Shown here: positions 1,941-53,689 of the stretch, one piece after another | Position numbering within the stretch: position 1 is the stretch's first letter | How the letters are laid out: each line of letters starts with the position of its first letter | Assembly: GCA_028715965.1 (NCBI GenBank) | Contig: JAQUQS010000003.1 | Span: forward strand, 78,494 to 142,493 | Length of the DNA stretch: 64,000 nucleotides | From: Candidatus Omnitrophota bacterium | GTDB lineage: Bacteria > Omnitrophota > Gorgyraeia > Tantalellales > Tantalellaceae | Direction: 5' to 3' | Made by a program: the position numbers and the translations under genes | Notes under the pieces: generated by a model | Database searches by the model: none | Seen by the model: the letters and a program-made list of their open reading frames with translations, nothing else | What the model was told of the DNA's origin: nothing

Positions 1941-3875
1941 ATGAAATATGACCCGTTCCAGATAGAAGCGATAAACCACATAAATAACGGCCACTCTGTG
2001 CTGGTCTCCGCCCCGACAGGGGCCGGAAAGACCGTAATAGCCGAGCATGTGATAAATGACAGCCTCGAGAGAGGCGGTAAGGTCATCTATACGGCCCCGA
2101 TAAAAGCGCTGTCCAACCAGAAATTCCGCGACTTCCAGGCCCATCACGCGGACAAGACCGGTATATTGACCGGGGATGTCAGTTTGAACCCTTACGCCCC
2201 CGTGCTCATCATGACAACGGAGATCTTCAGGAACAAGATACTTACCAATGCGGACGAATTAAAGGATTACTCCTGGGTCATATTTGATGAGATCCACTAT
2301 CTGGATAATTTTGAGCGCGGAACGGTGTGGGAGGAATGCCTGATATTCCTTCCCTCCCACATGAACATGCTCGGGCTTTCGGCCACCATACCTAATATCG
2401 ACGAATTCGCGCGATGGATAAGTTCGATACACGGCAAGGACCTCAAGGTGGTCAAGGAGGAAAAAAGGCCCGTGCCTCTCCACTTTTTCTATCAATGCGA
2501 CGGGAAAGTGTTCGACGACATGAACAAATTACGCCATTTGTCCCCCCCTCACGTAAGGCGTCATGGGTATCGACGCCATGGCATGCCAAAACACTCGCTA
2601 AAGGACTTCAGGCCCAACCGGTTGGATACCCTCGTCCGCCATCTTGAGGAAACCCGGAAATTACCATGCATATATTTCGTCTTTGGCCGCAAAAGGTCCG
2701 AGTTCCTGGCCGGGGAACTTGCCGGTTTCGACTTCCTCTCCGCCGAAGAAAAAGAAAAGATATCGCGCCTTTACCGGGACCTCTGTGAAAAATTCTCGCT
2801 TACGGGAGAGAACAGCGCGGAAGAGATGTTGCCCCTTGTGGAACGCGGCATAGCGTTCCATCACGCCGGGATGCTCCCCACGTTGAAAGAGGTGATCGAA
2901 CGGCTTTTCACCAGCCGCCTGATAAAAGTGATCTTTACCACGGAAACGTTCGCGCTTGGCATAAATATGCCCGCCAGGACCGTCGTTTTCGATGAACTCA
3001 GGAAATTCTACGGAAGGTTCCACGCGAACCTTAAAACACGGGATTTCTACCAGATGGCCGGACGCGCGGGAAGACGGGGCATAGATACCGAAGGCTTTGT
3101 ATACAGCCGCGTGAACCTCAACCGCCTCAAACCGGACGAGCTGAAACGCATCATCCTCGGTGAACCGGAAAGGGTCCGCAGCCGTTTCAACGCTTCATAT
3201 GCCACCATCCTTAACCTCTACACGAACTACGGCGATTCACTGTACGATATATATGAGCGCTCTTTCCACTCTTTCCAGGAAAAGATCAAATATCGTGAGA
3301 GGGCGGTAAGTACCATGCGCGCCAGGGTAGACCTCCTGGAACATATGGGCTATATCGCCAGGGGGGGGCTTACCGATAAAGGCGCGTTCGCTTCCAGATT
3401 ATACGGGTACGAGCTCGGACTTACGGAACTTTACCATTCCGGCATGATGAACGACATGGGGGTCAAGGATATCGGTATAATATGTTCCGCCCTCGTGTAT
3501 GAACCCCGCAAGAACTCCACATTGCCGAAACTTAACAAACACACACGCTCCCTGCAGGGCATGACCGACAACATAATGAAGAACATCCACAGGAACGAAA
3601 AAAAATTCGGCCTGCAGGAACCCAGCAAGGACTACAATTACCACACGGCGAACTGTGTGGAGGCCTGGATGTCGGGATGTGAGTTCAACGACCTCCTGCG
3701 TCTTACAGACGCGGATGAAGGCGAGATCATACGCTACTTCCGCATGGCCGTACAGGTATTACGGGAACTTCTCGACACCCCCGCGTCCCCGGCGACAAAG
3801 CAAAAATTCCGGAGCGTTATAGGCCTGATAAACAGGGATATCGTCGACGCGGAGAACCAGTTGAAAGAATTGTGA
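1941..3875 (+). CDS. Ski2-like DEAD/DEAH-box ATP-dependent helicase with C-terminal DSHCT domain (HelY/Mtr4-like, compact)
   Basis: Walker A APTGAGKT, DEIH box, SAT, HAGM/QMAGRAGRRG motifs; C-terminal WMSGCEFNDLLRLTDADEGEIIRYFRMAVQVLREL resembles the DSHCT domain. Confidence 0.8.
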   Translation: MKYDPFQIEAINHINNGHSVLVSAPTGAGKTVIAEHVINDSLERGGKVIYTAPIKALSNQKFRDFQAHHADKTGILTGDVSLNPYAPVLIMTTEIFRNKILTNADELKDYSWVIFDEIHYLDNFERGTVWEECLIFLPSHMNMLGLSATIPNIDEFARWISSIHGKDLKVVKEEKRPVPLHFFYQCDGKVFDDMNKLRHLSPPHVRRHGYRRHGMPKHSLKDFRPNRLDTLVRHLEETRKLPCIYFVFGRKRSEFLAGELAGFDFLSAEEKEKISRLYRDLCEKFSLTGENSAEEMLPLVERGIAFHHAGMLPTLKEVIERLFTSRLIKVIFTTETFALGINMPARTVVFDELRKFYGRFHANLKTRDFYQMAGRAGRRGIDTEGFVYSRVNLNRLKPDELKRIILGEPERVRSRFNASYATILNLYTNYGDSLYDIYERSFHSFQEKIKYRERAVSTMRARVDLLEHMGYIARGGLTDKGAFASRLYGYELGLTELYHSGMMNDMGVKDIGIICSALVYEPRKNSTLPKLNKHTRSLQGMTDNIMKNIHRNEKKFGLQEPSKDYNYHTANCVEAWMSGCEFNDLLRLTDADEGEIIRYFRMAVQVLRELLDTPASPATKQKFRSVIGLINRDIVDAENQLKEL

Positions 3876-21758: not shown

Positions 21759-24700
21759 TTAAGCGGCCTTGAGCAGGTCTTGCATAGCGGAATGGAGTTC
21801 CAGTAGTTTTTCCACAGGCATACGCGCCATAGGAGGTATAGCCAGGGATATGGCCAGGTTGATCCTGGTTGACGAGTCATCATAGACCATGTTCTTCAGT
21901 GTCTTTTCGGTTATACCTATACTGCCGTCGGATAGAACAGCGTACAGGTCCCTCAAACGCGAAAGCATGCGGGTATCCTCTATTACCTTGTTCATTTCTT
22001 CTTCTTCAAGCGCGCTTACACCCCGGCCTCTTCTTTTCGCTATCACAAGAGCGGCCTTGGACAGGCCGATCATAAGCGCGGCTTCAAAATTCCTGAAAAC
22101 GACCTGCTTGTTATTAATTCCGGTCAGTCCGTCCATAGCTACCGGGAACTCTCCAGGCCCAAGCTCCATACCACTATCCCTCATCCACTCAAGCCAGGCC
22201 TTCGACAAAATAGGTATTTCTATGGCATTCTCCGCCTGGTCGGCGTTAAGCTTCCCGTTCATTATGGCGTCCGCGTCTATATCCTGGCCGAAAAGTACCG
22301 AAAGCTCACGTATCCTGCCCTTCAAGAGGAATCTCACTTCTTCCTCGGACGCGCCGTTCCTTATCTCCGTAAGCAGACTTTCGGGCATGGTCTTCATGTC
22401 CACGGGATAAGGTTGCCTGAAACTGAACCGGACATTCTCCAGGTCCCGGCATAAGAGCATCAAATGCGCCCACGTTGTTATGTTCGCCTCCATATCCCGC
22501 CGGTCCAGCCCTGATATAAGGGAAAGGTCCACTACAATATGCACCGGAGCCATCTTTCCCGGCATGGAAGGATCATCAAAAACAGCCTCGAGATGTCTCT
22601 TAAGCCCGGTAAACGCCATGATCGCCGCGACATGGGACCGTTGTACATTGTCCCGCGCTTCACTGACCCTCCGAGCAAGCTCACCGGCGGCCGCTTCTCC
22701 GGCCTCACCGATAACCCTGATCATACCAAGCGCGTGCTGGTAGACCGCGTCCTTAAGCCTGTCCGGGTCGTCCACGCTCATTTCGATCATGTTCACGTTC
22801 ATTTCCCCGCCGAAATATGCCGCCGCAAAATATTTTAACGCTTCGTTCTGGACAGCCTTGTTCTCCTCCCCAGCAAGATCTAAGACCTTTATCAGGTTAT
22901 CTATCCTGGCATCGACCCCGTGTCTCAGAAAGCGTTCGTTCTCGCCCGCTATCTCCCAAAAATCCCCCAAGTCAGTGATATTGCCGAGCATATCCGTGTT
23001 TATCATTGATCCATGGGTACTCTCCATAATGTTATTGTTCACCAGTCTGCGCATGTTGCGTCCGTAATTACGGCACATCTCCCTGAAATATTCCTCCAGG
23101 GAACCGAATCCTAATTCATCCAACGCGTCATTAAACTCTTTCTTCTTAGGCGCTCCATCCGTATCAAAGAAGGACGAAAGGCGTCTGTAATCCCCCACAG
23201 GCACACGCAGGGTAATTACATACGGCGCTTCCAGCGTCATATTCGCGAGCGTCCACCTGGTCAGGCTGCCACCGTCATTAAGCACCGATATCTCGCGCGG
23301 GATGGTCGTACCGTACTCATCTCCAAGCCCCACGGGGTTCCTTGTAGCCAGCTGGTGCCACCAATCCAGGAATATCCCGGGTTTACCCACGTATTCATCT
23401 ATCACGGTCGCCGGAAAGCTTGAGTTTATATTATGTTTTTCATATGACGGCGTTCCCGCGTTCTTGAACTCCAGCCCGAACACGTGCCGGCTTTCCTCCC
23501 CTCCGGACCTGAGGTCGTCCGTGGTCCTTATGATCCTTTCTCCACTACTCGTCCTGGAGGTCACTACCGTATACGGTATGGGAAGAAGCATGGACCTTCC
23601 CGCTATCCCCAGCGCGGGCATCTCGAAGGGCTTATCGTCCTTACCATATACCCTGCGTAACCCATATCTTTCATATACTTCCTGGTCGGTAAGCGGCCTG
23701 ACATACGCGATGGTCGGAGCGCCTTCGACTTTGGCGTAAAAAGGACCTGTCGTCAGGACAAGCGCCCCGTTATCCCCGTTGATGATCGAACTCAAATGTC
23801 CAGGGAATTCCACGCCGACCGGAATATCCCACTTGGCCCCTTCTTTTACGTAAACTTGCGCCATTATCGGCGTGAATTTCTTGCCTACCGTAAGGTACCT
23901 TGTTTTACCGGTATCTTTATCGACACTTATGCTGCTTGCCGACACTGCGGCTGATACTTCCTTTCCAGCTTCTTCCTTGAGGGCATAGAACGCGTCCGTC
24001 GCGGCAAGAGGAGTGAACTCCATCCTCCCGGATGGCGCCGCCGGCCCGACAGCGGCCTTTTCCGATCTTTTCGCCTCCATCATCTTCAAGAGAACGTAAT
24101 TAGCTACCGTTCCCGGGGTTATCTCTCGTACGGTCTCTATTTTTTCCGCGCTATGCTCATCGGAAAAATCCTTATGGGCTTTCTCCAGCACTTCCGGGTC
24201 CACTTGCTCAACAAGGGACAGGTACCTGTCCATGTTACGCTGGCTCCATACCCGCCATATGCGCGGGTCCAGGCTCTTTATCTTTGCGGCCTGCCGCGGG
24301 TCCAGTATGGCAGCGGAAATACCGCCGACAAGCTCTATCGACGCGCGCATATCGCCATCGCTATCCCGGTAGGTGGTCGCCCCTATCGTATCGTAATATC
24401 CAATGAGCCCCGCGCCGCCCAAAGCGGCTATCAGCACATCCTCGCGCCTTATATATCGCTTGGCCCACAGGATAAGATAATGCGTCTTTATTATGAAGTT
24501 CCCCAGTCCGCGACCGCGGTTGTCCTGGTAGTTCCTGACGCCGTAGCTTCCCCTTTCCGCCCGGGCTACCTCCCTTAATTCATTCCCATCCGGCCCTATC
24601 TCAACCATGGCAATGTCACTGTTCTCCTCTATCCTGAACTCATATTCGACCCGATCCGGCCCAGTCCCGCTGACCCATTTTGTGCTTCTTTTCTCGCCCA

Positions 24701-26774
24701 GAAGGTCCCACATATCGAATTCATACACCTCGGACAGATAGAACATATCAGCGATATGTTCGGGTTTCATATATTCTTCCATCCTGTCAGGACCTCGCCC
24801 CCACATATCCGACCCCTTACCCTCGAACTGTCCGGCAAGCTTGCGGTATTTGTAATAGAATGTGTTGAGCCGGGAAAACCCTTCTTCGTCCAATTTGATA
24901 TTCCTCTCCACAAGTCCCCGGATACGCGCTATCTCTATATTGTCCACCACCTCCCGAATGGTGGTCTCAAGTGTCTTTCCGCTCGAATCCAGCACAACGG
25001 CGTTCTTCGGCCGGCGTGACGGCATATGTTCTCGATGTTCGTCAAGCTCATCCCTACGCGCGATGCTCCCGGCTACTGCCTCGACCATTCTCCCGAAACG
25101 TTCTTCCTCGGAGACGCTCTCCGCTATACGCGCGTACTCACCAGGCGTAGTTCCTATAACATTGCAATAAGAGGCTTCAAGGCCTTCCTTTTTCACCATC
25201 TGGCGTGTCCTGCGTTCCGCGCGCTCCTCGGGACTGGCGGTCATGTATATTTTTATATCAGCATCCGGGGCGATCTCTATTCCCGTGGTCCTCCCCTCAA
25301 GCACCACAGAGACCCCACGCGCCCGAAGCGTGTCTATCATTTCCCTTATCTTCCTGACGGCGAACCATCGTATCTCGGGTATGGCCGAGACAAAAGGCAC
25401 GTTGCCGGAAATATCCTCGGAATAGAATATCTCCGTGATCTCTTGTTCTCCATAAAAAGAACGCGTAGTCCCTTCCGTTTCTTCCATGCGGAACTTCGCC
25501 ATGTCGATATTCTCCGCTATCTTGCGAAGTTCCTCCTTAGTGGACCGGTCCATATCTTTTTTTATATCCAACCCTTCCTTAAGGGCAAGCCATGTTATAA
25601 GCCGGTATATCTTTCCGGCCGAAAAGAACACCGCCCCCAGCATTTTTGCCGCTTCGGACGCGGATGAGGATTTCCCCGTCCCCGATGGGCCATCTATCGT
25701 CGCTACAAAACTATCGTTAAGTATGGGTTGTTTAGCGTAGATCGGGCCAGTCCTGACATCCGGATATTTCCTCAGATCCAGGTGGGCTCTCCTGATATAC
25801 TCCCCGGTGTCGAGCCTTACTTCTCCCTTTATCGTGCCCGGACCGAACATCCCGCTCCATATATTCTCGCCATTGTAGGTCAGGAACGTCGTAGTTAATC
25901 TCCATCGATTTTCCTTATCAATATCGCGCGAAAGCTCCGTCACGAGTTCCCGCAGGAGATTACGCCCGACACCACGCCCTCTTTCCTGCCTCATGACATA
26001 ATGAAAGTAGATCTTATACCCGGTACGACCGACCTTCCCGTACGAGACGAACCCCAGTATCGGCCCACCCAGCTCACGTATGATTATCATATCGTCACGT
26101 GACCGGTCTATCCCGTCGTCATAATCCACCACGACATCCGGCACATCATCCCTGTAAGCCTTTATAGCCCCGTCTATCATCTCCCTGCGTTTACCTTCAT
26201 CCTTTATCCTGGCGGTATATATGATCTCCGCCTTAGGCGCCTTGCGGGCCCTGGCTATCTCCATGGGCATTATCTTTAAATATTCATCTTGGACAGGTTC
26301 CGCGGCGGCAACGTCTTCCGCATCCGCCGGTTCTATATTGATGCGGGTCTCATCCTTCTGGATATCCTGTATACTGCGGCAAGTGGAAGATATCTTCAGT
26401 TTTTTACCCTTGTACGGCCCCCTGACCACGGTAACAGCCACTACAGTACGGCCATCTTCTTTCCATACCCCTCCCGGCAGCACTTCCATAAGACGCGCTT
26501 TACCGTCTATCCGGCTGTACCATTTATCAAGTTCGGCGTTGATCTCGTGGAAAGGCATCTCTCCATCCCTTAGGGCCATGGCCAGTATAAGAGCCGTCTC
26601 GATACGCAGCGCTTCGGCGTTCTCGCGTCCTACATGATCTGTAACAGGTTTGAATATGGATTGTACCTGGAGGGTCTCCGACGGATCCATGTTATCATAA
26701 CGCGGCAATGCGGCAAATACGGTATCGTTGGACAGGAACAGGCATATGACCAAAGATGAAATTATCCGTTTCAT
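21759..26774 (-). CDS. Giant multidomain protein (about 1670 aa): N-terminal signal/anchor, GNAT acetyltransferase, cytidylate-kinase-like P-loop domain, possible second GNAT motif, large uncharacterised C-terminal half
   Basis: GNAT motif A QERGRGVGRNLL (preceded by ILGFVSYGK); cytidylate-kinase-like VATIDGPSGTGKSSSA and VLDSSGKTLE; second RGRGLGNFIIKTHYLILWAKRY; uninterrupted ORF of 1710 codons. Start set at MKRIISSLVICLF. Confidence 0.6.
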   Translation of the reverse strand: MKRIISSLVICLFLSNDTVFAALPRYDNMDPSETLQVQSIFKPVTDHVGRENAEALRIETALILAMALRDGEMPFHEINAELDKWYSRIDGKARLMEVLPGGVWKEDGRTVVAVTVVRGPYKGKKLKISSTCRSIQDIQKDETRINIEPADAEDVAAAEPVQDEYLKIMPMEIARARKAPKAEIIYTARIKDEGKRREMIDGAIKAYRDDVPDVVVDYDDGIDRSRDDMIIIRELGGPILGFVSYGKVGRTGYKIYFHYVMRQERGRGVGRNLLRELVTELSRDIDKENRWRLTTTFLTYNGENIWSGMFGPGTIKGEVRLDTGEYIRRAHLDLRKYPDVRTGPIYAKQPILNDSFVATIDGPSGTGKSSSASEAAKMLGAVFFSAGKIYRLITWLALKEGLDIKKDMDRSTKEELRKIAENIDMAKFRMEETEGTTRSFYGEQEITEIFYSEDISGNVPFVSAIPEIRWFAVRKIREMIDTLRARGVSVVLEGRTTGIEIAPDADIKIYMTASPEERAERRTRQMVKKEGLEASYCNVIGTTPGEYARIAESVSEEERFGRMVEAVAGSIARRDELDEHREHMPSRRPKNAVVLDSSGKTLETTIREVVDNIEIARIRGLVERNIKLDEEGFSRLNTFYYKYRKLAGQFEGKGSDMWGRGPDRMEEYMKPEHIADMFYLSEVYEFDMWDLLGEKRSTKWVSGTGPDRVEYEFRIEENSDIAMVEIGPDGNELREVARAERGSYGVRNYQDNRGRGLGNFIIKTHYLILWAKRYIRREDVLIAALGGAGLIGYYDTIGATTYRDSDGDMRASIELVGGISAAILDPRQAAKIKSLDPRIWRVWSQRNMDRYLSLVEQVDPEVLEKAHKDFSDEHSAEKIETVREITPGTVANYVLLKMMEAKRSEKAAVGPAAPSGRMEFTPLAATDAFYALKEEAGKEVSAAVSASSISVDKDTGKTRYLTVGKKFTPIMAQVYVKEGAKWDIPVGVEFPGHLSSIINGDNGALVLTTGPFYAKVEGAPTIAYVRPLTDQEVYERYGLRRVYGKDDKPFEMPALGIAGRSMLLPIPYTVVTSRTSSGERIIRTTDDLRSGGEESRHVFGLEFKNAGTPSYEKHNINSSFPATVIDEYVGKPGIFLDWWHQLATRNPVGLGDEYGTTIPREISVLNDGGSLTRWTLANMTLEAPYVITLRVPVGDYRRLSSFFDTDGAPKKKEFNDALDELGFGSLEEYFREMCRNYGRNMRRLVNNNIMESTHGSMINTDMLGNITDLGDFWEIAGENERFLRHGVDARIDNLIKVLDLAGEENKAVQNEALKYFAAAYFGGEMNVNMIEMSVDDPDRLKDAVYQHALGMIRVIGEAGEAAAGELARRVSEARDNVQRSHVAAIMAFTGLKRHLEAVFDDPSMPGKMAPVHIVVDLSLISGLDRRDMEANITTWAHLMLLCRDLENVRFSFRQPYPVDMKTMPESLLTEIRNGASEEEVRFLLKGRIRELSVLFGQDIDADAIMNGKLNADQAENAIEIPILSKAWLEWMRDSGMELGPGEFPVAMDGLTGINNKQVVFRNFEAALMIGLSKAALVIAKRRGRGVSALEEEEMNKVIEDTRMLSRLRDLYAVLSDGSIGITEKTLKNMVYDDSSTRINLAISLAIPPMARMPVEKLLELHSAMQDLLKAA

Positions 26775-26935
26775 CTTTGGGGTAAATGCCGCTCTTTTGT
26801 CCCATGGTCCGCGTGTCATAACGGTCTTCTTCTGGTCCCTTTCCCGTCCCGGCCGGGGCATATCCACCCAATTTGGGGAAGGATGGAACATGCCCTTTTC
26901 CCGGGATACAACAACATAAAAAAAGCCGGATCGCC

Positions 26936-27032
26936 TATCTAGGCAATTCGGCTTTCTGGAATAAACATATCACGTTTATCTAGACCCCAAATTTTGCGCC
27001 CCCATGTCACCACGAGTTTGCCTTTATCTAGA
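26936..27032. promoter_or_regulatory. Cluster of three TATCTAG(A) palindromic sites in a divergent promoter region
   Basis: GCCTATCTAGGC (26934-26945) nested in a longer inverted repeat AAAGCCG...CGGCTTT; TTTATCTAGA at 26975-26984 and at 27023-27032. Confidence 0.35.
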
Positions 27033-27215
27033 TGGTGTTATTATAATACATAGCGTGTGTTAGCTCAATATAAAGTGAGGTGGGTTTTTCATCCCTAACA
27101 TGCGAACTTGTTTAAAAGTTATAGTTTTTGACTATTATGCCTTCTGCATGACGAATATGTTAGGTATACTATAGGTACCATGTTTCAATAACGTTATCCG
27201 ACAGGATGTTATCTT

Positions 27216-40381: not shown

Positions 40382-42127
40382 CTAAAAGTTGGTGGCAATC
40401 TTGATTATATATCTGTCTTCGGTATAACTCTGCGTGCCGTCCTCGTGGCGGTACATGTTATCCTCGAACCTGAACGTTAATCTTGTAGCGCGTTTTTTGT
40501 CTATAGTAAAGACGAGTTCAGCATAATTCCTTGTGTTCGTAAGATTACTGGCCGGGCCCGACCCGTCGAACTCGTGAACATTATTGGACGCCCGGAACAC
40601 ACATCTATCGCTTATATCGTAGTTCACGCTAAAAGCGTTATTGAAGGTGACATCCGGGTTGCTATCGGTCTTGACCGACCTGAAATCGGTGGAAATATCA
40701 TCGGACACATATAACCGTCTTCCGAAAAGCTTGAACTCTACGCCAAAGTTGACAAGTATGCGGTTGAACAGTTCCGTCCCCGAACCGTTATTGGCTATAT
40801 CCAGGTATTCTCTGTATTCATATCCGAACCCATAGTTCATCTTGCCGCCATCGAGCGTATCGTTCACCGCGAAACCAAAAGTGTTCGTCTGGGATTCCAA
40901 TGTATTATACCTGTCATCCGAGTCCCGGTTAAGCAGGTTGACATAGGGTCTTATTGAGAATTCGGGCTTCCCCTTCAACGGCCTTATATGCGCCGACATA
41001 TATTTCTCGTCGTTCGTGGTCCTTTTCGCCTGTTTGCTCCCGGGAAGATGGTCCCAGTAATAGTTCTGGACCAGTGAAATGCTCAGGCCCGGCAATATCT
41101 TCCAATCAAAACTTACCTGGTGTTGCTCTTTATCCGGCATGGCCGATCCCGCGTCCGTATAGAATTTAGGGGTTACGTAATAGTACAGGTATTTTACGCG
41201 TGCGTCCTTAATCTTGAGTTCGGGTTGCAGCCTGAACGCGGAACCGTACTGCGTATCACATAAAGGATCCCTTTCGTTGTACCTGTACGCACTCTGCGCG
41301 ACCTCATAGGCCACCTTGAAGTCTTTTACCGGGGACATCTCCCCGTCGATACTCCCGACGGTATTGTTCATATCGATCGCGGACGTATCCTGGTCTATGC
41401 TGCCCTTATCGTCCTGGGAGGTGACCGCCTGTACTCCTAGGCTGAAAAAAGGGAAACCGTAATTATTGCGGAACACATACTCGGCCATGCCGCCTACAAC
41501 ATTCCTCTGGTACATGTTACTGGAAGGATCCGCCTGGCTCTTTCTGCCGGCCACGAACCTGTATGTTTGTCCTTTTTCATGTGCTATCTTTACATTGAGG
41601 CCCTCCAGGCTCTGTCCCAGGACGAATTGGCTGAAATCGCCATAGAAGTCGCCGAACTGCACCATGTTGTCCTTATTAAATACCCGCAGGTCCAGCTGTT
41701 TAAGCCTTACGTCTTTCCGGCTTTCTATGCGGTGGTCGTCCGTTTTTCTGAAGAATGTCTGCCCTTCGAAACTATAATCATCCCATAGCTTTTCCTGGAT
41801 GTTCAGGTTAAGCTCCGTCACGGAAAACCCTCCCTCTTTGAGGAAAGACTTGTCTTTGTTCCCATAAACGTTATTGGCGTTAAACTCCTGGGATATGGTC
41901 CCGCTTATGCGCCCCGACCTGTCCGGCCCGTATTCTCCGTATGATCCAAAGTCAAAAAGGTCCTTGACCCGATCCTGTACGGTGAATGACGCGTTCTTGG
42001 CGTCACCGTTCCCTCCCTGGTTCCCTCCAAGATAATAAACCTCCGCGGCATATGACCACGGTACCGCTAACATCAAAGATAACCCAAAGGAAACCGCGCT
42101 TATCTTGCTTATACCCTTCAACTTCAC
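40382..42127 (-). CDS. Outer-membrane beta-barrel protein (porin/alginate-export-like)
   Basis: Signal peptide; alternating amphipathic beta strands throughout; C-terminal ...IIKIATNF with terminal Phe. Confidence 0.5.
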   Translation of the reverse strand: MKLKGISKISAVSFGLSLMLAVPWSYAAEVYYLGGNQGGNGDAKNASFTVQDRVKDLFDFGSYGEYGPDRSGRISGTISQEFNANNVYGNKDKSFLKEGGFSVTELNLNIQEKLWDDYSFEGQTFFRKTDDHRIESRKDVRLKQLDLRVFNKDNMVQFGDFYGDFSQFVLGQSLEGLNVKIAHEKGQTYRFVAGRKSQADPSSNMYQRNVVGGMAEYVFRNNYGFPFFSLGVQAVTSQDDKGSIDQDTSAIDMNNTVGSIDGEMSPVKDFKVAYEVAQSAYRYNERDPLCDTQYGSAFRLQPELKIKDARVKYLYYYVTPKFYTDAGSAMPDKEQHQVSFDWKILPGLSISLVQNYYWDHLPGSKQAKRTTNDEKYMSAHIRPLKGKPEFSIRPYVNLLNRDSDDRYNTLESQTNTFGFAVNDTLDGGKMNYGFGYEYREYLDIANNGSGTELFNRILVNFGVEFKLFGRRLYVSDDISTDFRSVKTDSNPDVTFNNAFSVNYDISDRCVFRASNNVHEFDGSGPASNLTNTRNYAELVFTIDKKRATRLTFRFEDNMYRHEDGTQSYTEDRYIIKIATNF

Positions 42128-42191: not shown

Positions 42192-45100
42192 TTAATTTGT
42201 GGCTATGTTCCTGCTGCCATCCGTCTGGATGGCATAATCAAAAGTAACGGTCGAGCTCACGCCCACGTTGTCCGTATAATTCGTTATACGCACCTTGCCG
42301 TAATATCCCTCCGACGTACGTATAAGGTACACTTTCCCCGGCAAGGGATTGACCGTTCCGGCATCTACCACATCCGGGGCCGTCGTAAGCTCTCCGTAGG
42401 TATATGTGGCGGTAACGTCCTGTATCCTTGCCCCGTTCTGTGACCAGAACTGGTCCGCGTATTCGAGATCTATGTCGGCGTTGGGGTTCCCACCCTGGCC
42501 GGGCGCTACGTCGGGATTACCGGCGGTGAAGTCAAAACCCCTCGCCCCGGCCGGCCCGCCGGGAACACAAGTGACAGTACCCTGCCGCGTGCTTATAGGC
42601 GCGCCTCCAGAGGATAATCCGCCGTTTTCTTCGGTATCACCCGCGCCAGGCTGCACCGGGTTGCGTGAGTTCCTGGCTTCCGTTATCTGCTCTACCACGC
42701 TCTGGCTGAGCCCGCTGGCCTCGGCTATTTCGGGCGAAAGCGTGGCGTAAATAAGGTTCCCCCGCAAGTTATACAGTTTCATTTTCCCGTCCTCGAACAC
42801 GAACACCATTACGGTATTCCCGGACGTCCTCTGCTGCTGGCCCGTTTTATATACTACTTGGGACTTGTTCCATTTCGTCTCGACCGAGAAATAATCCCTT
42901 CCTTTCTCTATGCGATTGATGAAGATGCTGAGGCGTATATCATTGAACATATCGAAATCGAACCTTAGCCCCTCCTCGAGGAAAGTCTTGTTACCGAGAA
43001 AATCTTTCGATATATACGGCGCGAAGATAGCCAGGCTTTCCCGCTCATAAGCCTCGGCAAGTTTTGTAACGGTTTCCACTATGAGCTGGGTATAATCCAT
43101 GTCCTTGTAAACAAGTGTCTGCCCCGGCGCCAGGAGGTCGAGGGTTATATCGTCTGACGAATTCATTTTAAGCCTTATGACCGGAGAATACGGCCTGTTC
43201 GCGAACGGCCTGAACCTGTACTTGAAATGTCCCTCGAGCGGGAGTTCTCTCCATGCCTCACCGTCTTCCGCCGCGAGTATCACGCGTACATCATGGAGGT
43301 TATCAATATATCCCTCAACCTCTATTTCGCCGTCCATGAGGTCGTTGTTCATAAGCGTCACCTCGCCGGAAGTCCTCGGCAGAACAACCGTATTCACCCG
43401 TACACCGCCCACATTATAGCCCAGGGACTTGTAATAATCGTCTTCTTCCTTTTTGCGTCTCTCTTCTTCCTGCCTTGCCAGCTCTTCCATCTTTTTTTTG
43501 TTCTCTTGACTCTGGGCTTCCTCCAACTTCTTTTTGGCAGTCTCCATGGCCTTCTGGCCCTGGACAGAAACAACCTTGTATATACCGTGTTTCCCCGGGG
43601 CCGGGGAAGCGTAGAAAGAAAGCCACTTGTCGAATATCGGGCTATCCTTGGCAAGTTCCTCCATTATCACATTATACTCGTATACGGCTTTATTGTACTC
43701 ACCCTCGCTGAACGCTTTTTCTATCCTGTCATTTGCGTCTTTTATTTTCGGCAGGAGTACAAGGAAATCGTTTATCGTGTCCGTCATCTTATAAGTCGTG
43801 TTCTCTATGAACCTGTTGATGGACTGGTTATCGGTCCCCGTCCAGTACATATAGCTCATCCATTCGGTACCGAATTTATCGACCTCATTCTTGATACCTT
43901 CATCCGGAAAGTTGTTGGCAAAATCGTACATGAACGCTATCCCCGGTTTTCCCGCGTATTCGGTCAGTACTTTTCTCCTCATTTTTTCGGCTAGTGCCTC
44001 CAATCTGGCTGATTTGGCGGCTTTGTCATACAGGCTGATCAATGCGTCCCTTTTCTCCCCCAAATAAGCCCCGACTTCATCGGCCGTCCTGCCTTCGGCG
44101 AACATCTTTTTTGTCTCGCCCTGCAGTCTCCAGACCATATCACCGGAACTATATTCGTCCCTCGATATCTTCATCCCCACGCCCTTACACTCGTCAATGA
44201 CCTGCTTCCTTAACCCCTGCGCCTCACGAAGCGAATTGAGCGCCCCCTGAGAATCAGTAACAAAGGACTTGGCGGCATCAAGAGCGAGTGACTTCTTCCG
44301 ATTGAACTCATTCTCAAGATTATTCACGTTCTTCTCCGCGTTCTCTATGCTCACGTTCATCATGCCGATCATCTTTGGGTTTTTGACCTCCACCGACGCG
44401 ATACGTTTCATAAGCGGTGCCGCGATACCTTCTCCATTCCCGCCGAGGCTCGCGATCTGCCCCAACAGGCTTCCTATATCGTTCCTGGCGCTTTCCCCCA
44501 GGTCGGAATACTCGCTCATGGAACGGTCTAATATGCTTATCGTGAACTCGCAATATTTCGCGATCCTGCCCAGGATCTTCGCTTCGTTCCTGAGTTTGGT
44601 CACATCCATACCCATTATCTCGCTCTCGGTATAAACGCTCACCGAGGGATAGTTCGGACTGGGGGACAGCATCCTGAGCCCGCTAGTATCACTCGTCGCC
44701 ATTTCCTCCATTCTGCGGTCTATCTCATTACACCGCTGCGAGTATGACTGTACGGTCGAGGAAAGCTGGGCCAAAAGCTGTCTTTTTATCCGTTCGGCCT
44801 CTTCAGCGCTGCTTACAATTATCGGGGCAACCGACTTAACCGGCACTTGTGCCATGTTCTGTATTTCCGACCTAAGCGCTTTTTCTTTCTCCTCGGCCTC
44901 TTCCTGCGAGGCCTTATTGATACGCTCCTGGAGTTCTTTTATGCGATCGCTGAGCCTCTGGACCTCGGCATTAAGTTCGGGGAAGACATTCTCGACCTCG
45001 TTGTTGGCTTGGTCGAGCTTCTTGCGCAACGCTATCATTTTATCCTGCGCCTTCTTTATCTCCTCGAGCACCATTTGGAATTTACGGTATATGGCCCCCG

Positions 45101-45641
45101 TATCCCCCAGCTTGTCCCCCTGTTTCAGGGCCTCGTCCTTTACCTCATCCAGATCCATTCCAAGCGTTTCGTTTATTTTTTCAAGTTCCGGCAGCGTTCT
45201 CACAGCTTCATCGCTCAGACCTTTTATGGCCACGTCATAAGGCGTGCTGTATTCTTTCTGCAAACTGTCAGAGTGCAGCTCCAACCGGCAGGAAAGCAGT
45301 ATCATCATGACGGCTTTACGATAAAAACCCATCACGAGGTTTATCTTGCCGTATGTCTCGATACCCAGCGCTATGGTCGACTTGACAAGATTCTTCTGCA
45401 GGATATCCCTCATCTTCGCGTCAAGCTGTCTTAATTCCACCGCGGCCTTTGATATCTCCTCCACTGTCTTGGGATAATCTTCCAGGAACTTTTTAGCGCG
45501 CGCGTGATCTTCGCCTATTACGTCAAGATGCCTCTGGGCCTCTCTTATCTCATCCTTGAGGAAATCCATATTCTCGGCATGAACGTTCCAGACAAGAATA
45601 CTGGAGATCATAATGGATAAAGTAACCACTTTTTTGAACAT
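42192..45641 (-). CDS. Giant secreted coiled-coil protein (about 1150 aa), function unknown
   Basis: Signal peptide MFKKVVTLSIMISSILVWNVHA; long heptad-rich alpha-helical regions with Glu/Lys-rich stretch (EEERRKKEEDDYYK); Gly-rich beta-rich C-terminal domain. Confidence 0.55.
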   Translation of the reverse strand: MFKKVVTLSIMISSILVWNVHAENMDFLKDEIREAQRHLDVIGEDHARAKKFLEDYPKTVEEISKAAVELRQLDAKMRDILQKNLVKSTIALGIETYGKINLVMGFYRKAVMMILLSCRLELHSDSLQKEYSTPYDVAIKGLSDEAVRTLPELEKINETLGMDLDEVKDEALKQGDKLGDTGAIYRKFQMVLEEIKKAQDKMIALRKKLDQANNEVENVFPELNAEVQRLSDRIKELQERINKASQEEAEEKEKALRSEIQNMAQVPVKSVAPIIVSSAEEAERIKRQLLAQLSSTVQSYSQRCNEIDRRMEEMATSDTSGLRMLSPSPNYPSVSVYTESEIMGMDVTKLRNEAKILGRIAKYCEFTISILDRSMSEYSDLGESARNDIGSLLGQIASLGGNGEGIAAPLMKRIASVEVKNPKMIGMMNVSIENAEKNVNNLENEFNRKKSLALDAAKSFVTDSQGALNSLREAQGLRKQVIDECKGVGMKISRDEYSSGDMVWRLQGETKKMFAEGRTADEVGAYLGEKRDALISLYDKAAKSARLEALAEKMRRKVLTEYAGKPGIAFMYDFANNFPDEGIKNEVDKFGTEWMSYMYWTGTDNQSINRFIENTTYKMTDTINDFLVLLPKIKDANDRIEKAFSEGEYNKAVYEYNVIMEELAKDSPIFDKWLSFYASPAPGKHGIYKVVSVQGQKAMETAKKKLEEAQSQENKKKMEELARQEEERRKKEEDDYYKSLGYNVGGVRVNTVVLPRTSGEVTLMNNDLMDGEIEVEGYIDNLHDVRVILAAEDGEAWRELPLEGHFKYRFRPFANRPYSPVIRLKMNSSDDITLDLLAPGQTLVYKDMDYTQLIVETVTKLAEAYERESLAIFAPYISKDFLGNKTFLEEGLRFDFDMFNDIRLSIFINRIEKGRDYFSVETKWNKSQVVYKTGQQQRTSGNTVMVFVFEDGKMKLYNLRGNLIYATLSPEIAEASGLSQSVVEQITEARNSRNPVQPGAGDTEENGGLSSGGAPISTRQGTVTCVPGGPAGARGFDFTAGNPDVAPGQGGNPNADIDLEYADQFWSQNGARIQDVTATYTYGELTTAPDVVDAGTVNPLPGKVYLIRTSEGYYGKVRITNYTDNVGVSSTVTFDYAIQTDGSRNIATN

Positions 45642-45866
45642 GTGATTCTCCTTCATGTAAGGTATGTTCTTGATACGTTGTATTCCCTGATCCACACGGT
45701 TAAATGACACCAGGATTATACAATATTGGTTTGATTTTTTGAAGCGTTTTGTTAAGAAATAATTAAGATTTAAGAATTTAGACGTTGATGGATACTTTTC
45801 GTGATACGATCAGAGCAAACCGACTACGCCCATGTTTTGCTTGTATATTTAGGGCGGGATCAACAC

Positions 45867-46900: not shown

Positions 46901-49075
46901 ATGAAAAATAAGAAATTTTTCCTGATAACATTCGGTATCATTTGCGTTATTCTTTCGTGTTTTCCCGCGATGGCCGAAGACAAAAAGGGGTCCTCTGACC
47001 TTGTTTCCGACATGGCCATGCTGATGCTCCAGATCGGTATAGTCCTTTTCGCGGCATGGGGAGGCGGCACCTTATTCAAAAAATTCAAGCTGCCGGAAGT
47101 GCTCGGGGAGATAGTATCCGGTATTTTCATAGGGCCATACCTTCTTGGGGCCCTGCCGCTTCCTTCGTTCCCCAACGGGTTGTTCCCCCTCCATCCGGGA
47201 CTACCGATATCTATCGAGCTGTACAGCCTTTCGGTAATAGCCTCTATCATCCTCCTTTTCCTTGTAGGGGTGGAGACCGATGTCGAAATGCTTTTCCGTT
47301 TTTCCGTCACAGGCCTTGTCGTAGGCATCGGCGGCGTTATCATAAGCTTCCTGGCCGGCGCTTTTGGGGGCGCGATCTTCATGAGTTACGTACTTGAAAG
47401 GCCTCTGGACCTTTTACAGCCTATACCACTGTTCCTGGGAGTTATCTCGACAGCCACGTCCGTTGGCATTACCGCCAGGGTACTTTCCTCCAACCGGAAG
47501 ATCGACTCCCCTGAAGGCGTGACCATCCTGTCGGCCGCGGTGATCGACGACGTTCTCGGTATAATAGCCTTCGCCGTGGTCATCGGCATTATCCGTAGCG
47601 GACACGTGGTGTGGCGTGACATATCGATAATATCGCTCAAGGCTATAGGGATCTGGTTAGGCTTCACCGTGCTGGGACTGACGTTCTCACGCCAGATCAG
47701 TTCCTTCCTGAAAAAATACTTCAGTGACAGGTCCACGATGGCCGTTATGAGTTTTGCCCTCGCACTTCTTCTGGCCGGCATATTCGAAAAATCCGGCCTT
47801 GCCATGATAATCGGGGCGTATGTTATGGGCATCTCCCTTTCAAAGACCGATATTTCTTTCGTAATAAGAGAAAATCTTGATGTTTTGAACAAGTTATTCG
47901 TACCGCTCTTTTTCTGTGTTATGGGTATGTTGATAGATCTGCGAGAGCTTTTCCACCCCGCTGTCATATATTTTGGTCTTCTCTATACGCTCTTGGCGGT
48001 CATCGGCAAGATAGCGGGTTGCAGCATACCATCCCTCTTCTTGAATTTCACCCCGCGTGGGGCCCTCAGAATAGGTGTCGGAATGGTACCCAGGGGCGAG
48101 GTGGCCCTTATCATCGCAGGTATAGGACTCGCGTTGGGCTTCATCCCCCACGACGTCTTCAGCCTGGCTATCATCATGACGTTCATAACCACGCTTATAA
48201 CGCCTCCCGTCCTGGATACACTCTTGCGTTCGGACAAACCCGCCCTCCGGAGATCACAACAGGTCAAAAAAGGGACTGAAACGATAAAATACACTTTGCC
48301 TAACCCCGAGACCACGGAACTTATTCTCACCAAGATAGTCGCGGCGTTCGAAAGTGAGGGCTTTTTTGTCCATCGCATCACGATAACAGATACGCTTTAC
48401 CAGATACGCAAGAACGACATCTTTTTCTCGATGAGGCAATATCCGCATGAACTGGTTTTTGAGTGTTCCGGGGATGATACATATCTCGTCCATACAGTAT
48501 TTTACGAGGTCATAGCCGAACTCGAGGAGCTCATCAAGAATCTTGAGTCCGTTTCCGACAAGGAAAAGATAGCCCGGGATATCTTCGGCCATACGTCCTC
48601 GGGGTCCAGGGAAAAACTGAACCTTTACCAGATCATCAAACCCTTGGCGGTAACAACCACCCTGAGCGGCGAGACAAAGGATGAAATACTGGCGGAGCTG
48701 GTGGACCTACTTGTGCGGGCAGGCGAACTTCCGATGGAAAAACGTGATGTGGTCCTCAAGGACCTCCTGGAAAGAGAGGCTACCATGTCCACCGGGATGC
48801 AGGACGGCGTGGCTCTTCCACACACAAAGACAATGGCCGTCGACCACCTTATATCCGGCGTAGGCGTAAAAAAAGACGGGGTGGAATTCGACGCCCTTGA
48901 CAGGAAGCCGGCACAGATATTCGTTATAACGCTCGCGCCGAAAGCGAACCAGGAACCATACCTTCAATTCATGGCCGAAGTGACCAAGGTCTTGATAAAT
49001 CCGGAAGCCCGGAAAAAGATATTATCATGTTCCACGGATAAAGAACTCTTCACCACACTTACGTCCTCGACTTGA
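46901..49075 (+). CDS. Cation:proton antiporter (Na+/H+ exchanger family) fused to C-terminal PTS EIIA type-2 (PtsN-like) domain
   Basis: About 400-aa polytopic exchanger domain, linker domain, then EIIA-2 motif TMSTGMQDGVALPHTKT with phosphorylatable His. Confidence 0.75.
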   Translation: MKNKKFFLITFGIICVILSCFPAMAEDKKGSSDLVSDMAMLMLQIGIVLFAAWGGGTLFKKFKLPEVLGEIVSGIFIGPYLLGALPLPSFPNGLFPLHPGLPISIELYSLSVIASIILLFLVGVETDVEMLFRFSVTGLVVGIGGVIISFLAGAFGGAIFMSYVLERPLDLLQPIPLFLGVISTATSVGITARVLSSNRKIDSPEGVTILSAAVIDDVLGIIAFAVVIGIIRSGHVVWRDISIISLKAIGIWLGFTVLGLTFSRQISSFLKKYFSDRSTMAVMSFALALLLAGIFEKSGLAMIIGAYVMGISLSKTDISFVIRENLDVLNKLFVPLFFCVMGMLIDLRELFHPAVIYFGLLYTLLAVIGKIAGCSIPSLFLNFTPRGALRIGVGMVPRGEVALIIAGIGLALGFIPHDVFSLAIIMTFITTLITPPVLDTLLRSDKPALRRSQQVKKGTETIKYTLPNPETTELILTKIVAAFESEGFFVHRITITDTLYQIRKNDIFFSMRQYPHELVFECSGDDTYLVHTVFYEVIAELEELIKNLESVSDKEKIARDIFGHTSSGSREKLNLYQIIKPLAVTTTLSGETKDEILAELVDLLVRAGELPMEKRDVVLKDLLEREATMSTGMQDGVALPHTKTMAVDHLISGVGVKKDGVEFDALDRKPAQIFVITLAPKANQEPYLQFMAEVTKVLINPEARKKILSCSTDKELFTTLTSST

Positions 49076-51619: not shown

Positions 51620-53689
51620 TTAAAAACTGTATTTGACAGTGACTGTACCATTGTGCGAAATATACTCGTCTTTGAGCGCTAGGTCATACCCCAGCTCCAC
51701 GGTGGTGCTCAGGTATTCCGCCGTCAAGCTCAATCCGACATCATATGTGTTCCTGTCCGGCTTGGACCCGTTGGCCGTGAAAGATGGTCCGCCACCGGCA
51801 AATGCCGAATTGACCTCCACCTGTTCTCCCATGTAATCATGTAACCATTTAAAATACACTTCCGGCTTCATGTTGACCTTGTCCCACAGGAATGGATAAG
51901 CCGCTTTGAGCCCCAGCCCCTGCTCGAACTTATCGTATTCCTGTCCATCCACATTAAGGTTCAGCGAACCTGCCCCGTCCTCGGTATAATCATCAAGCCT
52001 GAGATGCACCCAGCTCAATGATGTGAACGGCGTGAATATAAAACCTTCGTAAGGATAATCGTACCCGATCTCGCCATATACCTGGTATTGCTGGCCATCG
52101 TATTCGGCTTCAGCGGTCCTGGATATAGCGCCAAAGTTTATATCCCTTGACCCTTTATACCAGTTCCACCCAAAAAGCCCTACAAGGTCGGCATAGACAT
52201 TATCGTTGTCGACGAATACCGCGTCCGGGGTGTTATACTGCCCGTATACCAACCCTTGTACGCAGTTTATATCCGTATCGTTCACGTTCTGCTGTTTGGA
52301 ATCTACCTTTGAATAGGCATACCCAAACCCTACGCCGATGTTCAGGGCTTCGGTCATAAGGCAATCATACCCGACAACAACTCCCATCATCCAGGATTTA
52401 TACCCGTCTATCCCTTTGCGTTTGTCCTGGTCGGTATAGTTACCGAAACCTTTCGCCCATATGGTATTAGGTTCTTCCGCGCTTCCCGTGGATACGCCAG
52501 TCCCGCCGCCGATGCTCGACATGTGGGACACTATGGTCTGCGTCGCCCCTACACCTATATCATAAGTCGCGCTTCTCGCCCCATCGTCCACAGCCGGCAT
52601 CAGATCGCTATAAGCCGAGTCAACTGCGGTCGCGCTCGTGAGCCCTTGTAGTTCGGACACGACCGTCGCCATATCACCCGTAGCACCAGCTGTATCGATC
52701 GACGCAAGCGTCTTGGCTACCGCGGCATCGTTACTTCCCGCAGCGGGGCTGACATAATCCGTAGCGGCCGTTATTACAAGGTTGTCTCCGGCGGCACTGG
52801 CCGAGGTAAAGGATAAAATAGTGCTGTTATCCGTAACGGGAATATCCGCCGCGACACCGTTCGTTCCCCCGTCGTTACCATCGACTATCGTAAGAGCCGA
52901 GCCTGTCTTCACGTACCCCGTAACGTTCACGCTAACAGTCGTGTTCGTATCTATGGTCGCGTCGCCTGTCACGTCTATATGCCCGTAGGATGTCGCGCTC
53001 GCTACGGTAGTTGACAATGTACCCGCGGCGGCCGGGGTCTGATCATATATCCCCCCTACGTCAAGCGTGTTCCCTGCCAGGGCCACATTTTCCGTAAGCG
53101 TATCCCCGGTAATGGAGCATCCTGTCCCGTCAACCGTGATGGTCCTGAGTACGGCAGATCCGCCCGTGCCGACACCGCCCGTGATGACGTTGGTCCCGTG
53201 AAGCACAAGGTCGGTAGTGGTGTTTGACGCCTGCTGGTTGGCTATATCCCCAGTTATGTCGACACCGCTGGCCAGGTCTATCGTAGTGCTGTTCCAGAGG
53301 CCTATAGGCATCCATACATCACCCTGGAAGTATATGGTATGGTTCTGCATAAGGTCTATGGTCGAGCTGTTAATAGCGTTGGTCTCCCCTATCGTTCCCG
53401 TGACGGTTATATCGCCCGTAGTATTATAGAACGCTACGGTACAGGTATTCGCCACAGCTGCATCTATACTTTTGCCCGCGTCGTTCCCTACGGTCGTGTT
53501 CCCCGCACGGAACACAAGCGCGCCGGTCGCCCCGTCAAATACGTACGCCGCATCGTTCGCGGCCGGGTCCACGGTAGCGCCCACCCCGATATGCGTCGCC
53601 GCCACGGCAAATACATCGGCCGGGCATAACACTACACCCAAAGCCAATGACAAGAACAATGATAAAGTTTTTTTACATACCCCGTACAT
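51620..53689 (-). CDS. Autotransporter (type Va): Thr/Gly-rich passenger plus C-terminal beta-barrel translocator
   Basis: Signal peptide; repetitive TGD/TVD-rich passenger; about 280-aa C-terminal barrel ending ...GTVTVKYSF. Confidence 0.7.
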   Translation of the reverse strand: MYGVCKKTLSLFLSLALGVVLCPADVFAVAATHIGVGATVDPAANDAAYVFDGATGALVFRAGNTTVGNDAGKSIDAAVANTCTVAFYNTTGDITVTGTIGETNAINSSTIDLMQNHTIYFQGDVWMPIGLWNSTTIDLASGVDITGDIANQQASNTTTDLVLHGTNVITGGVGTGGSAVLRTITVDGTGCSITGDTLTENVALAGNTLDVGGIYDQTPAAAGTLSTTVASATSYGHIDVTGDATIDTNTTVSVNVTGYVKTGSALTIVDGNDGGTNGVAADIPVTDNSTILSFTSASAAGDNLVITAATDYVSPAAGSNDAAVAKTLASIDTAGATGDMATVVSELQGLTSATAVDSAYSDLMPAVDDGARSATYDIGVGATQTIVSHMSSIGGGTGVSTGSAEEPNTIWAKGFGNYTDQDKRKGIDGYKSWMMGVVVGYDCLMTEALNIGVGFGYAYSKVDSKQQNVNDTDINCVQGLVYGQYNTPDAVFVDNDNVYADLVGLFGWNWYKGSRDINFGAISRTAEAEYDGQQYQVYGEIGYDYPYEGFIFTPFTSLSWVHLRLDDYTEDGAGSLNLNVDGQEYDKFEQGLGLKAAYPFLWDKVNMKPEVYFKWLHDYMGEQVEVNSAFAGGGPSFTANGSKPDRNTYDVGLSLTAEYLSTTVELGYDLALKDEYISHNGTVTVKYSF

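Follow-up and report, generated by a model that had tools for sequence, protein, structure and literature searches.

The stretch of DNA considered here, called the window below, comprises 64,000 nucleotides of a Candidatus Omnitrophota bacterium (assembly GCA_028715965.1, contig JAQUQS010000003.1) and carries on its minus strand, at positions 21759–26891, an open reading frame (ORF) of 1710 codons plus stop, as seen in the ORF list and its translation. The ORF encodes one modular protein in which an N-terminal module (NT), a GNAT acetyltransferase, a nucleoside monophosphate (NMP) kinase of the cytidylate kinase (Cmk) type, a module termed MID, a SelO-like module termed CA and a C-terminal module (CB) follow one another in this order. 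NT and CB are the fixed ends of a protein family restricted to Omnitrophota, between which the middle consists of shuffled enzymes that use ATP, S-adenosylmethionine (SAM) or acetyl-CoA; four of these cargo modules make up the middle of the present protein, namely the GNAT, the kinase, MID and CA, and each of them is recognized by its sequence in other combinations elsewhere in the family. The original prediction, made from the letters of the window alone, had described a fusion of GNAT and cytidylate-kinase-like domains with a long unassigned remainder, possibly a novel enzyme. A modular multi-enzyme protein is the better description than a single novel enzyme, since the modules occur independently and MID and CA are found without the others in many proteins.

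One gene and a family with fixed ends

Both the position of the ORF and its codon count proved exact, and the translation holds all four motif strings that had been quoted from it, namely QERGRGVGRNLL (aa 302–313, given as GNAT motif A), VATIDGPSGTGKSSSA (aa 396–411, the P-loop), VLDSSGKTLE (aa 633–642, assigned to the kinase) and RGRGLGNFIIKTHYLILWAKRY (aa 793–814, a second GNAT-like motif). The ORF is one real gene, neither a chance ORF nor an assembly chimera, because a 1671-aa protein that is 100% identical and starts at M40 is annotated on a 161.6-kb contig of a Candidatus Omnitrophota metagenome-assembled genome (MAG) at NCBI, and because three homologues from three other MAGs (P0002–P0004, 1612–1672 aa) are co-linear with the query over 95–98% of the length. 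That the ORF might be a chimera, or several genes joined by sequencing errors, is suggested by nothing beyond its origin from a MAG. The chance of such an artefact is negligible, given that the full module order is found without frame breaks in four independent MAGs at 44–49% identity and that base composition is uniform along the ORF and resembles that of the rest of the window. The several independent genes which the original prediction had named as grounds for its rejection were thus not found.

Three start codons come into consideration: M1, M25 (ATG 26817–26819) and M40 (ATG 26772–26774), the last being that of the NCBI annotation. M1 is located 26 nt past a T-run, while M25 and M40 both lie upstream of the only hydrophobic segment. 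Homologues start about 11 residues ahead of this segment, and the real start is probably M25 or M40, with a product of 1671–1686 aa, because the family alignment favours a start 3–18 residues before it. Upstream of the ORF, on the same strand (26930–26947 and 27040–27068), a promoter-like TTGAGC-17-TATAAT (10/12) was noted about 150 nt before M1, together with a terminator-like hairpin with a T-run between the promoter-like site and the ORF start, which may mark where an upstream transcript ends or else act as a leader or attenuator. In the promoter and terminator scan, the numbers of sites were no higher than in shuffled sequences.

The fixed ends are apparent from comparison of the query with proteins of otherwise unrelated content. 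Three weaker matches of the first search, P0006 (2848 aa, with a metallophosphoesterase), P0007 (2487 aa, with HATPase_c and GNAT) and P0008 (1691 aa), match the query at aa ~40–195, and the first two match it again from aa ~1390/1426 to 1710; NT is common to all four proteins, the middles of which are unrelated. A profile of aa 657–1710 compared with 1.84 billion cluster representatives yielded 194 proteins at E<=0.001, in most of which the match was to the CB region and lay at the end of the target protein. Exhaustive search of representatives was needed to see the family, because searching for homologues by word index gave only 1 new protein for the NT profile and 8 for the CB profile, mostly fragments.

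Hidden Markov models (HMMs) of the six modules (NT, GNAT, CMK, MID, CA and CB) were mapped on 154 retrieved proteins, about 65 of which, 575–7388 aa long, begin with NT and end with CB. Membership was defined by an NT within ~15 residues of the N-terminus and a CB ending at the C-terminus; in the query, the NT model matches aa 40–198 and the CB model aa 1427–1710, to the last residue, which places it in the family. The full GNAT-CMK-MID-CA combination is found only in P0001–P0004. P0005 (2017 aa; locus L005) reads NT-CMK-CA, then an insertion of ~800 aa with a DOT1-like domain, then CB, without GNAT and MID, and P0071 has the kinase without GNAT. CA was found in ~17 other proteins at varying positions, often straight after NT, and MID in at least 20 proteins, often as a tandem pair and once (P0124) right after an adenylate kinase (ADK) domain.

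A Pfam census of the cargo, which covered 45 family members of up to 5000 aa, returned methyltransferases, GNAT, metallophosphoesterase, FHA, Fic, inositol monophosphatase, CoaE, ADK, cytidylyltransferase-like and PPDK domains, as well as radical SAM/B12, HATPase_c, SNF2 helicase, ABC1, APH, PfkB, HD, CheR, ARMT1-like phosphatase, HEAT and TPR domains; a large share of the cargo has no Pfam match whatever. All 13 loci located in bacterial genomes sampled at one genome per species belong to Omnitrophota MAGs or to unclassified bins labelled 'uncultured Planctomycetia', one of which holds the contig encoding P0005; all named source genomes are Omnitrophota.

NT proper (26307–26708; this and all module coordinates below are on the minus strand of the window) spans aa ~62–195 and is marked by motifs from LQVQSIFKP to PFHEINAELDKWY; with the hydrophobic segment in front of it, it forms the N-terminal bookend, and the match of the NT model begins some 11 residues into the sequence in most of the 53 aligned proteins. 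CB (21762–22616; aa 1426–1710), the C-terminal bookend, ends in ...LLKAA, and the match of its HMM reaches the final residue in 111 of 119 cases, with IQxxLQ(A/S)A as the consensus end. In all, at least 94 sequences of CB and 53 of NT were obtained. An AlphaFold2 model of aa 657–1710, built from 16 sequences, is mediocre overall (pLDDT 65.5) and confident for CB (about 80–93), which it shows as an alpha/beta domain followed by helices.

Searches for known relatives of the modules gave little. In Pfam and NCBIfam, neither the whole protein nor four tiles of it at E<=10 matched anything besides GNAT and Cmk, and NT matched nothing in Pfam or in sequence searches of the PDB. PDB sequence searches with the profiles of aa 657–1710, CA, CB and NT returned nothing or noise (a ribosomal protein at E 4, LRRK2 at E 0.012 and dynein light chains at E 0.6). 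For CB, the comparison with the PDB gave nothing convincing, its sole match being the marginal one to LRRK2 (E 0.012), which comes from a single protein. Foldseek with the multi-domain model of aa 657–1710 was uninformative.

Acetyltransferase, nucleotide kinase and SelO-like modules

The GNAT module (25716–26294; aa 200–392, with the Pfam core at 250–326) bears motif A (Q/R-x-x-G-x-G/A) in the form RGRGVG. Acetyltransf_1 (PF00583) matches aa 250–321 with 24.1 bits (E 4.8e-5), a small margin over the gathering cut-off of 20.7. The GNAT domain of the original prediction is borne out by these two lines of evidence, and the module is kept in P0002–P0004 and missing from P0005.

The predicted cytidylate-kinase-like P-loop was likewise confirmed. 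The domain (24924–25715; aa 393–656) matches Cytidylate_kin (PF02224) at aa 398–573 and in a second stretch with 139.2 bits (cut-off 26, E 2e-40) and aligns over its full length with Cmks of solved structure (E 7e-29 to 2e-15). It retains the P-loop GPSGTGKSS as well as Y429, R430, R508, R534, R613, D617 and R620, which correspond to the phosphate- and ribose-binding Y40, R41, R110, R131, R181, D185 and R188 of the E. coli enzyme and are invariant in five family members. The side chains of Ser36 and Asp132 of Cmk hydrogen-bond the cytosine base (residue roles from PMC3603445, the mycobacterial Thr being equated to E. coli S36 by inference). Both are replaced: where solved Cmks read D(S/T)GAxYR, the query has SAGKIYR, with A425 at the Ser36 position (Tyr in the other four members), and where they read EGRDIGT, or (D/E)GRDxGT, it has EGRTTGI, with T535 at the Asp132 position (Val in the other four). 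Thus, judging from these alignments, the domain has the fold and phosphotransfer machinery of Cmk, but not its base pocket. The kinase may accordingly differ in substrate: because the phosphate- and ribose-binding residues are kept while the two cytosine contacts are replaced, it would phosphorylate, or bind, an NMP other than plain CMP.

The NCBI name for the identical protein and for its homologues is '(d)CMP kinase', which would make the gene the cell's own housekeeping enzyme with extra domains attached. The strong Pfam score and the retention of the P-loop and of the phosphate- and ribose-binding residues, including those of the NMP site and of the R181/D185/R188 insert, speak for this. 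Nevertheless, we consider it highly improbable: the (d)CMP kinase equivalog model of NCBIfam (TIGR00017) scores 128.2, below its cut-off of 135.55, both cytosine contacts are lost in all five family members, the kinase accounts for 15% of a protein with a signal-like N-terminus, and the family is patchy and modular, not universal. An insertion of ~35 residues past the RAERR motif of the LID region and the embedding in 1710 aa further set the domain apart from known Cmks. As a name for the whole protein of 1.7 kaa, '(d)CMP kinase' is misleading.

The combination of a nucleotide-binding P-loop module with a GNAT on one polypeptide also recalls TmcA/NAT10, a comparison that the original prediction had offered as speculation. 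In such a scheme, the two domains would cooperate as a single enzyme, for example in ATP-dependent acetylation of cytidine or a cytidine nucleotide. The GNAT and Cmk-like domains do adjoin and are kept together in four orthologues, and the replaced kinase residues, which contact the cytosine base, could speculatively make room for a modified one. However, the ATPase that defines TmcA is a helicase-type domain, whereas the P-loop of the query is that of an NMP kinase, both by Pfam and by alignment with solved Cmks. Moreover, the modules have separated in evolution: P0005 combines the kinase with the SelO-like module and lacks GNAT and MID, P0071 has the kinase without GNAT, and in P0124 MID follows an adenylate kinase. 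The Pfam scan detected no tRNA-binding domain, and NT, CA and CB would be left unexplained. A TmcA-like enzyme is therefore very unlikely.

The region behind the kinase, of which ~900 aa had been described as devoid of assignable motifs, resolves into a SelO-like kinase-fold domain and the family-defining C-terminal module, so that ~750 of the roughly 1050 formerly unassigned residues now have an assignment. Between these and the kinase lies MID (24030–24923; aa 657–954), with helical ends around a possible GNAT-like core (RGRGLG ... LIGYYDTIGA); comparison of MID with the first GNAT by hhalign gave a probability of 2%. MID stands directly behind a domain of NMP-kinase fold in two contexts, Cmk-MID in the query (aa 393–954) and ADK-MID in P0124 (582 aa), which hints that it works together with nucleotide kinases.

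CA (22692–24029; aa 955–1400) has a protein-kinase-like bilobal fold that comes closest to SelO (YdiU), a pseudokinase-fold protein adenylyltransferase. Candidate active-site residues are the G1095/G1098 loop, K1143, E1200, R1229, R1236, S1295 (in place of the HRD Asp), D1300 and D1307. They were equated to those of SelO by motif order and spacing, the alignment being made by eye and not by superposition in three dimensions. In SelO of P. syringae, K113, R176, R183, N253 and D262, which are named as catalytic, hold a flipped ATP and the metal, R176 and R183 (R170 and R177 in E. coli) holding its gamma-phosphate (PMC8097203); the E. coli numbers used here are the P. syringae numbers minus 6. 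The beta3 Lys lies in HLK107GAGLTPYS of E. coli SelO and in EFK1143NAGTPSYE of CA, both of the form K-[GN]-A-G-x-T-P-x-Y. The arginine pair (R-V-x-P...R) is found in MR170VAPSHLR177F and LR1229VPVGDYR1236R, seven residues apart in both. In the catalytic loop (H-G-x), AH240GVMNTDN247 and TH1293GSMINTD1300 have both lost the HRD Asp and place the metal ligand at H+7, and the DFG-like motif (D-x-G) reads LD256YGPF and TD1307LGDF, respectively. These elements, together with the glycine loop, follow in identical order and with corresponding spacing, the distances in SelO and CA being 63 and 86 residues from the Lys to the first Arg, 63 and 57 from the second Arg to the His, and 16 and 14 from the His to D-x-G.

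Across 18 CA domains, K1143, R1236, D1300 and D1307 are invariant, whereas R1229 and E1200 show a conservation of at least 90% and H1293 varies. CA departs from SelO in having Asp instead of Asn as metal ligand, in an extra invariant D1310 and an E1141, in an additional beta-rich N-terminal part, in lacking the C-terminal Sec/Cys, and in being an internal module, whereas SelO is a free-standing enzyme of ~480 aa. On the strength of the fold and these motifs, CA most likely works like SelO, transferring NMP from a nucleotide rather than phosphate. As sequence models define the SelO family, CA is not a member of it.

CA is joined to CB by a long helical linker (22617–22691; aa 1401–1425), a helix in both predicted models, and this is the site at which P0005 carries its insertion of ~800 aa including the DOT1-like methyltransferase (PF08123). 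DOT1-like methyltransferases are best known from eukaryotic histone methylation.

Proposed export of the protein and the cytoplasmic alternative

The hydrophobic signal or anchor that had been expected at the N-terminus is present as the protein's one hydrophobic segment. This signal-peptide-like segment (26709–26774; aa 40–61), which is part of NT, consists of MKR, a core IISSLVICLFL and SNDTVFA, with A as the residue after the predicted cleavage point. Residues 43–61 are the sole strongly hydrophobic stretch of the protein, the core is 11 residues long and there are no further transmembrane (TM) segments. A cleaved Sec signal fits because the core is short and small residues occupy -3 and -1. 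Eleven Lys and Arg residues precede the segment and a net acidic stretch follows it; because of this charge distribution, the rest of the protein is predicted to be translocated. Sec-dependent export of everything downstream of the segment, and cleavage, may be inferred from these features.

The consensus over 53 proteins, K-IIAxAVVCLFxVNTI(S/A)WA before the predicted cleavage point and xP after it, then LQVQSIFKP, again has small residues at -3 and -1. Within aa 40–63, C50 is conserved in 38 of the 53, F52 in 44, N55 in 40, W59 in 34 and P63 in 43. Such strong conservation of sequence is unusual for ordinary Sec signals, and suggests that the segment is recognised by a more specific factor than the general Sec machinery.

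The whole is best explained, in our view, by an exported multi-enzyme protein that acts on molecules of a host or prey, a reading of localisation and role which we hold to be somewhat probable. All modules downstream of the signal-like segment would be exported through Sec, and the cargo would act inside a host or prey cell or at the zone of contact with it, because ATP- or acetyl-CoA-dependent enzymes cannot function in the periplasm or outside the cell. In or at the host or prey cell, CA would take AMP or another NMP from a nucleotide held in the flipped orientation of SelO and attach it to a protein or small molecule, acetylation of a target would fall to the GNAT, and NT and CB might serve in export, tethering or delivery. 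Among the cargo of the family, the Fic, kinase-fold, GNAT, DOT1-like and phosphatase domains are of kinds typical for effectors. A role in another cell would agree with the host-dependent and possibly predatory lifestyle proposed for Omnitrophota. The literature describes the long proteins of this phylum as multi-enzyme proteins, 94% of which carry either a signal peptide or TM helices, and the organisms as dependent on a host.

Several observations weigh against this explanation. Export is predicted from the sequence features of the segment, which might instead be an anchor that is not cleaved or might belong to a folded domain. In the three neighbourhoods compared (the window and two homologue contigs), the gene has no conserved secretion or delivery genes at its side. 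NT and CB are left without an assigned role, CB having no informative structural match. Cargo of housekeeping type (CoaE, ADK, PfkB and a cation efflux domain) fits a metabolic as well as an effector reading; for CoaE, ADK, PfkB and PPDK, the scavenging of nucleotides or cofactors would fit equally well. Finally, the link of CA to SelO rests on the fold and on motifs aligned by eye, with no significant sequence similarity: against E. coli SelO, hhalign failed to align CA in local or global mode and gave a probability of 0.6%, hmmsearch with filters off gave 0.8 bits and the local Smith-Waterman score equalled the shuffle mean, while the Pfam SelO/UPF0061 model did not match and aa 955–1425 matched no Pfam family at E<=10.

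The main rival is a membrane-tethered multi-enzyme protein that stays in the cytoplasm, its hydrophobic segment serving as an anchor or having no part in export. The GNAT, kinase, MID and SelO-like domains would then form a fused regulatory or metabolic cluster, for instance for nucleotide or cofactor handling and self-regulation by AMPylation and acetylation. Every cargo domain needs cytoplasmic cofactors, and the recurrence of NMP-kinase folds (Cmk, ADK, CoaE) with a cytidylyltransferase-like domain points to nucleotide or cofactor metabolism. Bacterial SelO is itself a cytoplasmic regulator (PMC8097203), and a preprint by Nielsen and Lui (2026) classes 46% of long Omnitrophota proteins as having TM segments only, with their bulk in the cytoplasm. 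On the other hand, basic residues before and acidic ones after the segment predict an N-in, C-out topology that would put the cargo outside the cytoplasm, a core of ~11 residues with a conserved small-x-small site is typical of a cleaved signal and not of a 20-residue anchor, and no second TM segment is present. A cytoplasmic, membrane-tethered protein is thus a possible but rather unlikely alternative to export.

The design of the protein invites comparison with that of the MARTX toxins, in which conserved N- and C-terminal regions surround a variable array of enzymatic effector domains. The NT...CB family has fixed ends and a variable enzymatic middle, with Fic, kinase-fold, GNAT and phosphatase domains among its cargo. 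Unlike in MARTX toxins, the Pfam scan of the query found neither glycine-rich A/B/C repeats nor a cysteine protease domain, and type I secretion genes were missing from the three neighbourhoods; the resemblance is one of design only. One might nevertheless go further and propose, doubtful as this is, that NT and CB are the ends of an export or delivery scaffold, a phylum-specific, MARTX-like system that delivers interchangeable enzymes into or onto host or prey. Its cargo would include an NMP kinase whose base pocket has been re-tooled, as well as a new SelO-like branch of AMP-transferases, and the giant 'Archaeovorins' would be the extreme of the same design.

Genomic surroundings and relation to other long proteins

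The gene neighbourhoods in the window and on two homologue contigs have nothing in common, and no other copy of any of the six modules occurs in the window. The ORF of 2931 aa at 54593–63388 (minus strand) was considered as a further NT...CB family member and rejected: it comprises GT2, glucoamylase-like, GH94 supersandwich and GH94 catalytic domains, and resembles a cyclic beta-1,2-glucan synthase. Two adjoining long ORFs of 1172 and 581 aa (42192–45710 and 40382–42127, both minus) have no Pfam match at E<=1e-5. A protein of 689 aa (51620–53689, minus) bears an autotransporter beta-domain (202 bits), from which it follows that the organism possesses an outer membrane and type V secretion. On the plus strand, the window encodes a Na+/H+ exchanger membrane domain fused to a PTS EIIA-2 domain (46901–49075) and a Ski2-like helicase with DEAD, Helicase_C and DSHCT domains (1941–3875), an architecture more familiar from archaea and eukaryotes. 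On the contig that encodes P0004 (L001, 1–1041), a few genes upstream, there is a protein of 5490 aa with AAA_5/AAA_6 and VWA matches (midasin/MoxR-like).

Long, signal-bearing, multi-enzyme proteins are already known from Omnitrophota, in the preprints of West-Roberts et al. (2023) and of Nielsen and Lui (2026). As described in the relevant passages of these two preprints, the giants of the 'Archaeovorin' or multi-enzyme class share with the present family the phylum, the presence of many unrelated enzymes on one polypeptide, an N-terminal signal or TM segment and a repertoire of GNAT, methyltransferase, HATPase_c, PPDK_N, radical SAM, HD, HEAT and TPR domains. They differ in length, being at least 10,000 or 30,000 aa, whereas members of the NT...CB family have 575–7388 aa. 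The same passages mention no Cmk fusion, no SelO-like module and neither of the end modules NT and CB, all of which, within the parts of the literature searched, are previously undescribed. To this extent, the suggestion that the architecture was new has held.

Omnitrophota are uncultured and mostly host-dependent nanobacteria, in which the construction, export and function of very long multi-enzyme proteins are unexplained. The present result corrects a misleading database name. It also offers, in the Cmk-like module, a natural re-design of a base-recognition pocket, and the SelO-like module would add to the AMPylating pseudokinases a divergent branch that escapes sequence models. With NT and CB as search keys, the whole family can be catalogued, and both modules are testable as signals for export or tethering, while the cargo domains are small enough to be expressed individually. 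A member of 1.7 kaa with conserved ends is thus a tractable handle on the long proteins of Omnitrophota. Its interest lies in the end modules and the small size, through which the question of how such proteins are built, exported and used becomes directly testable.

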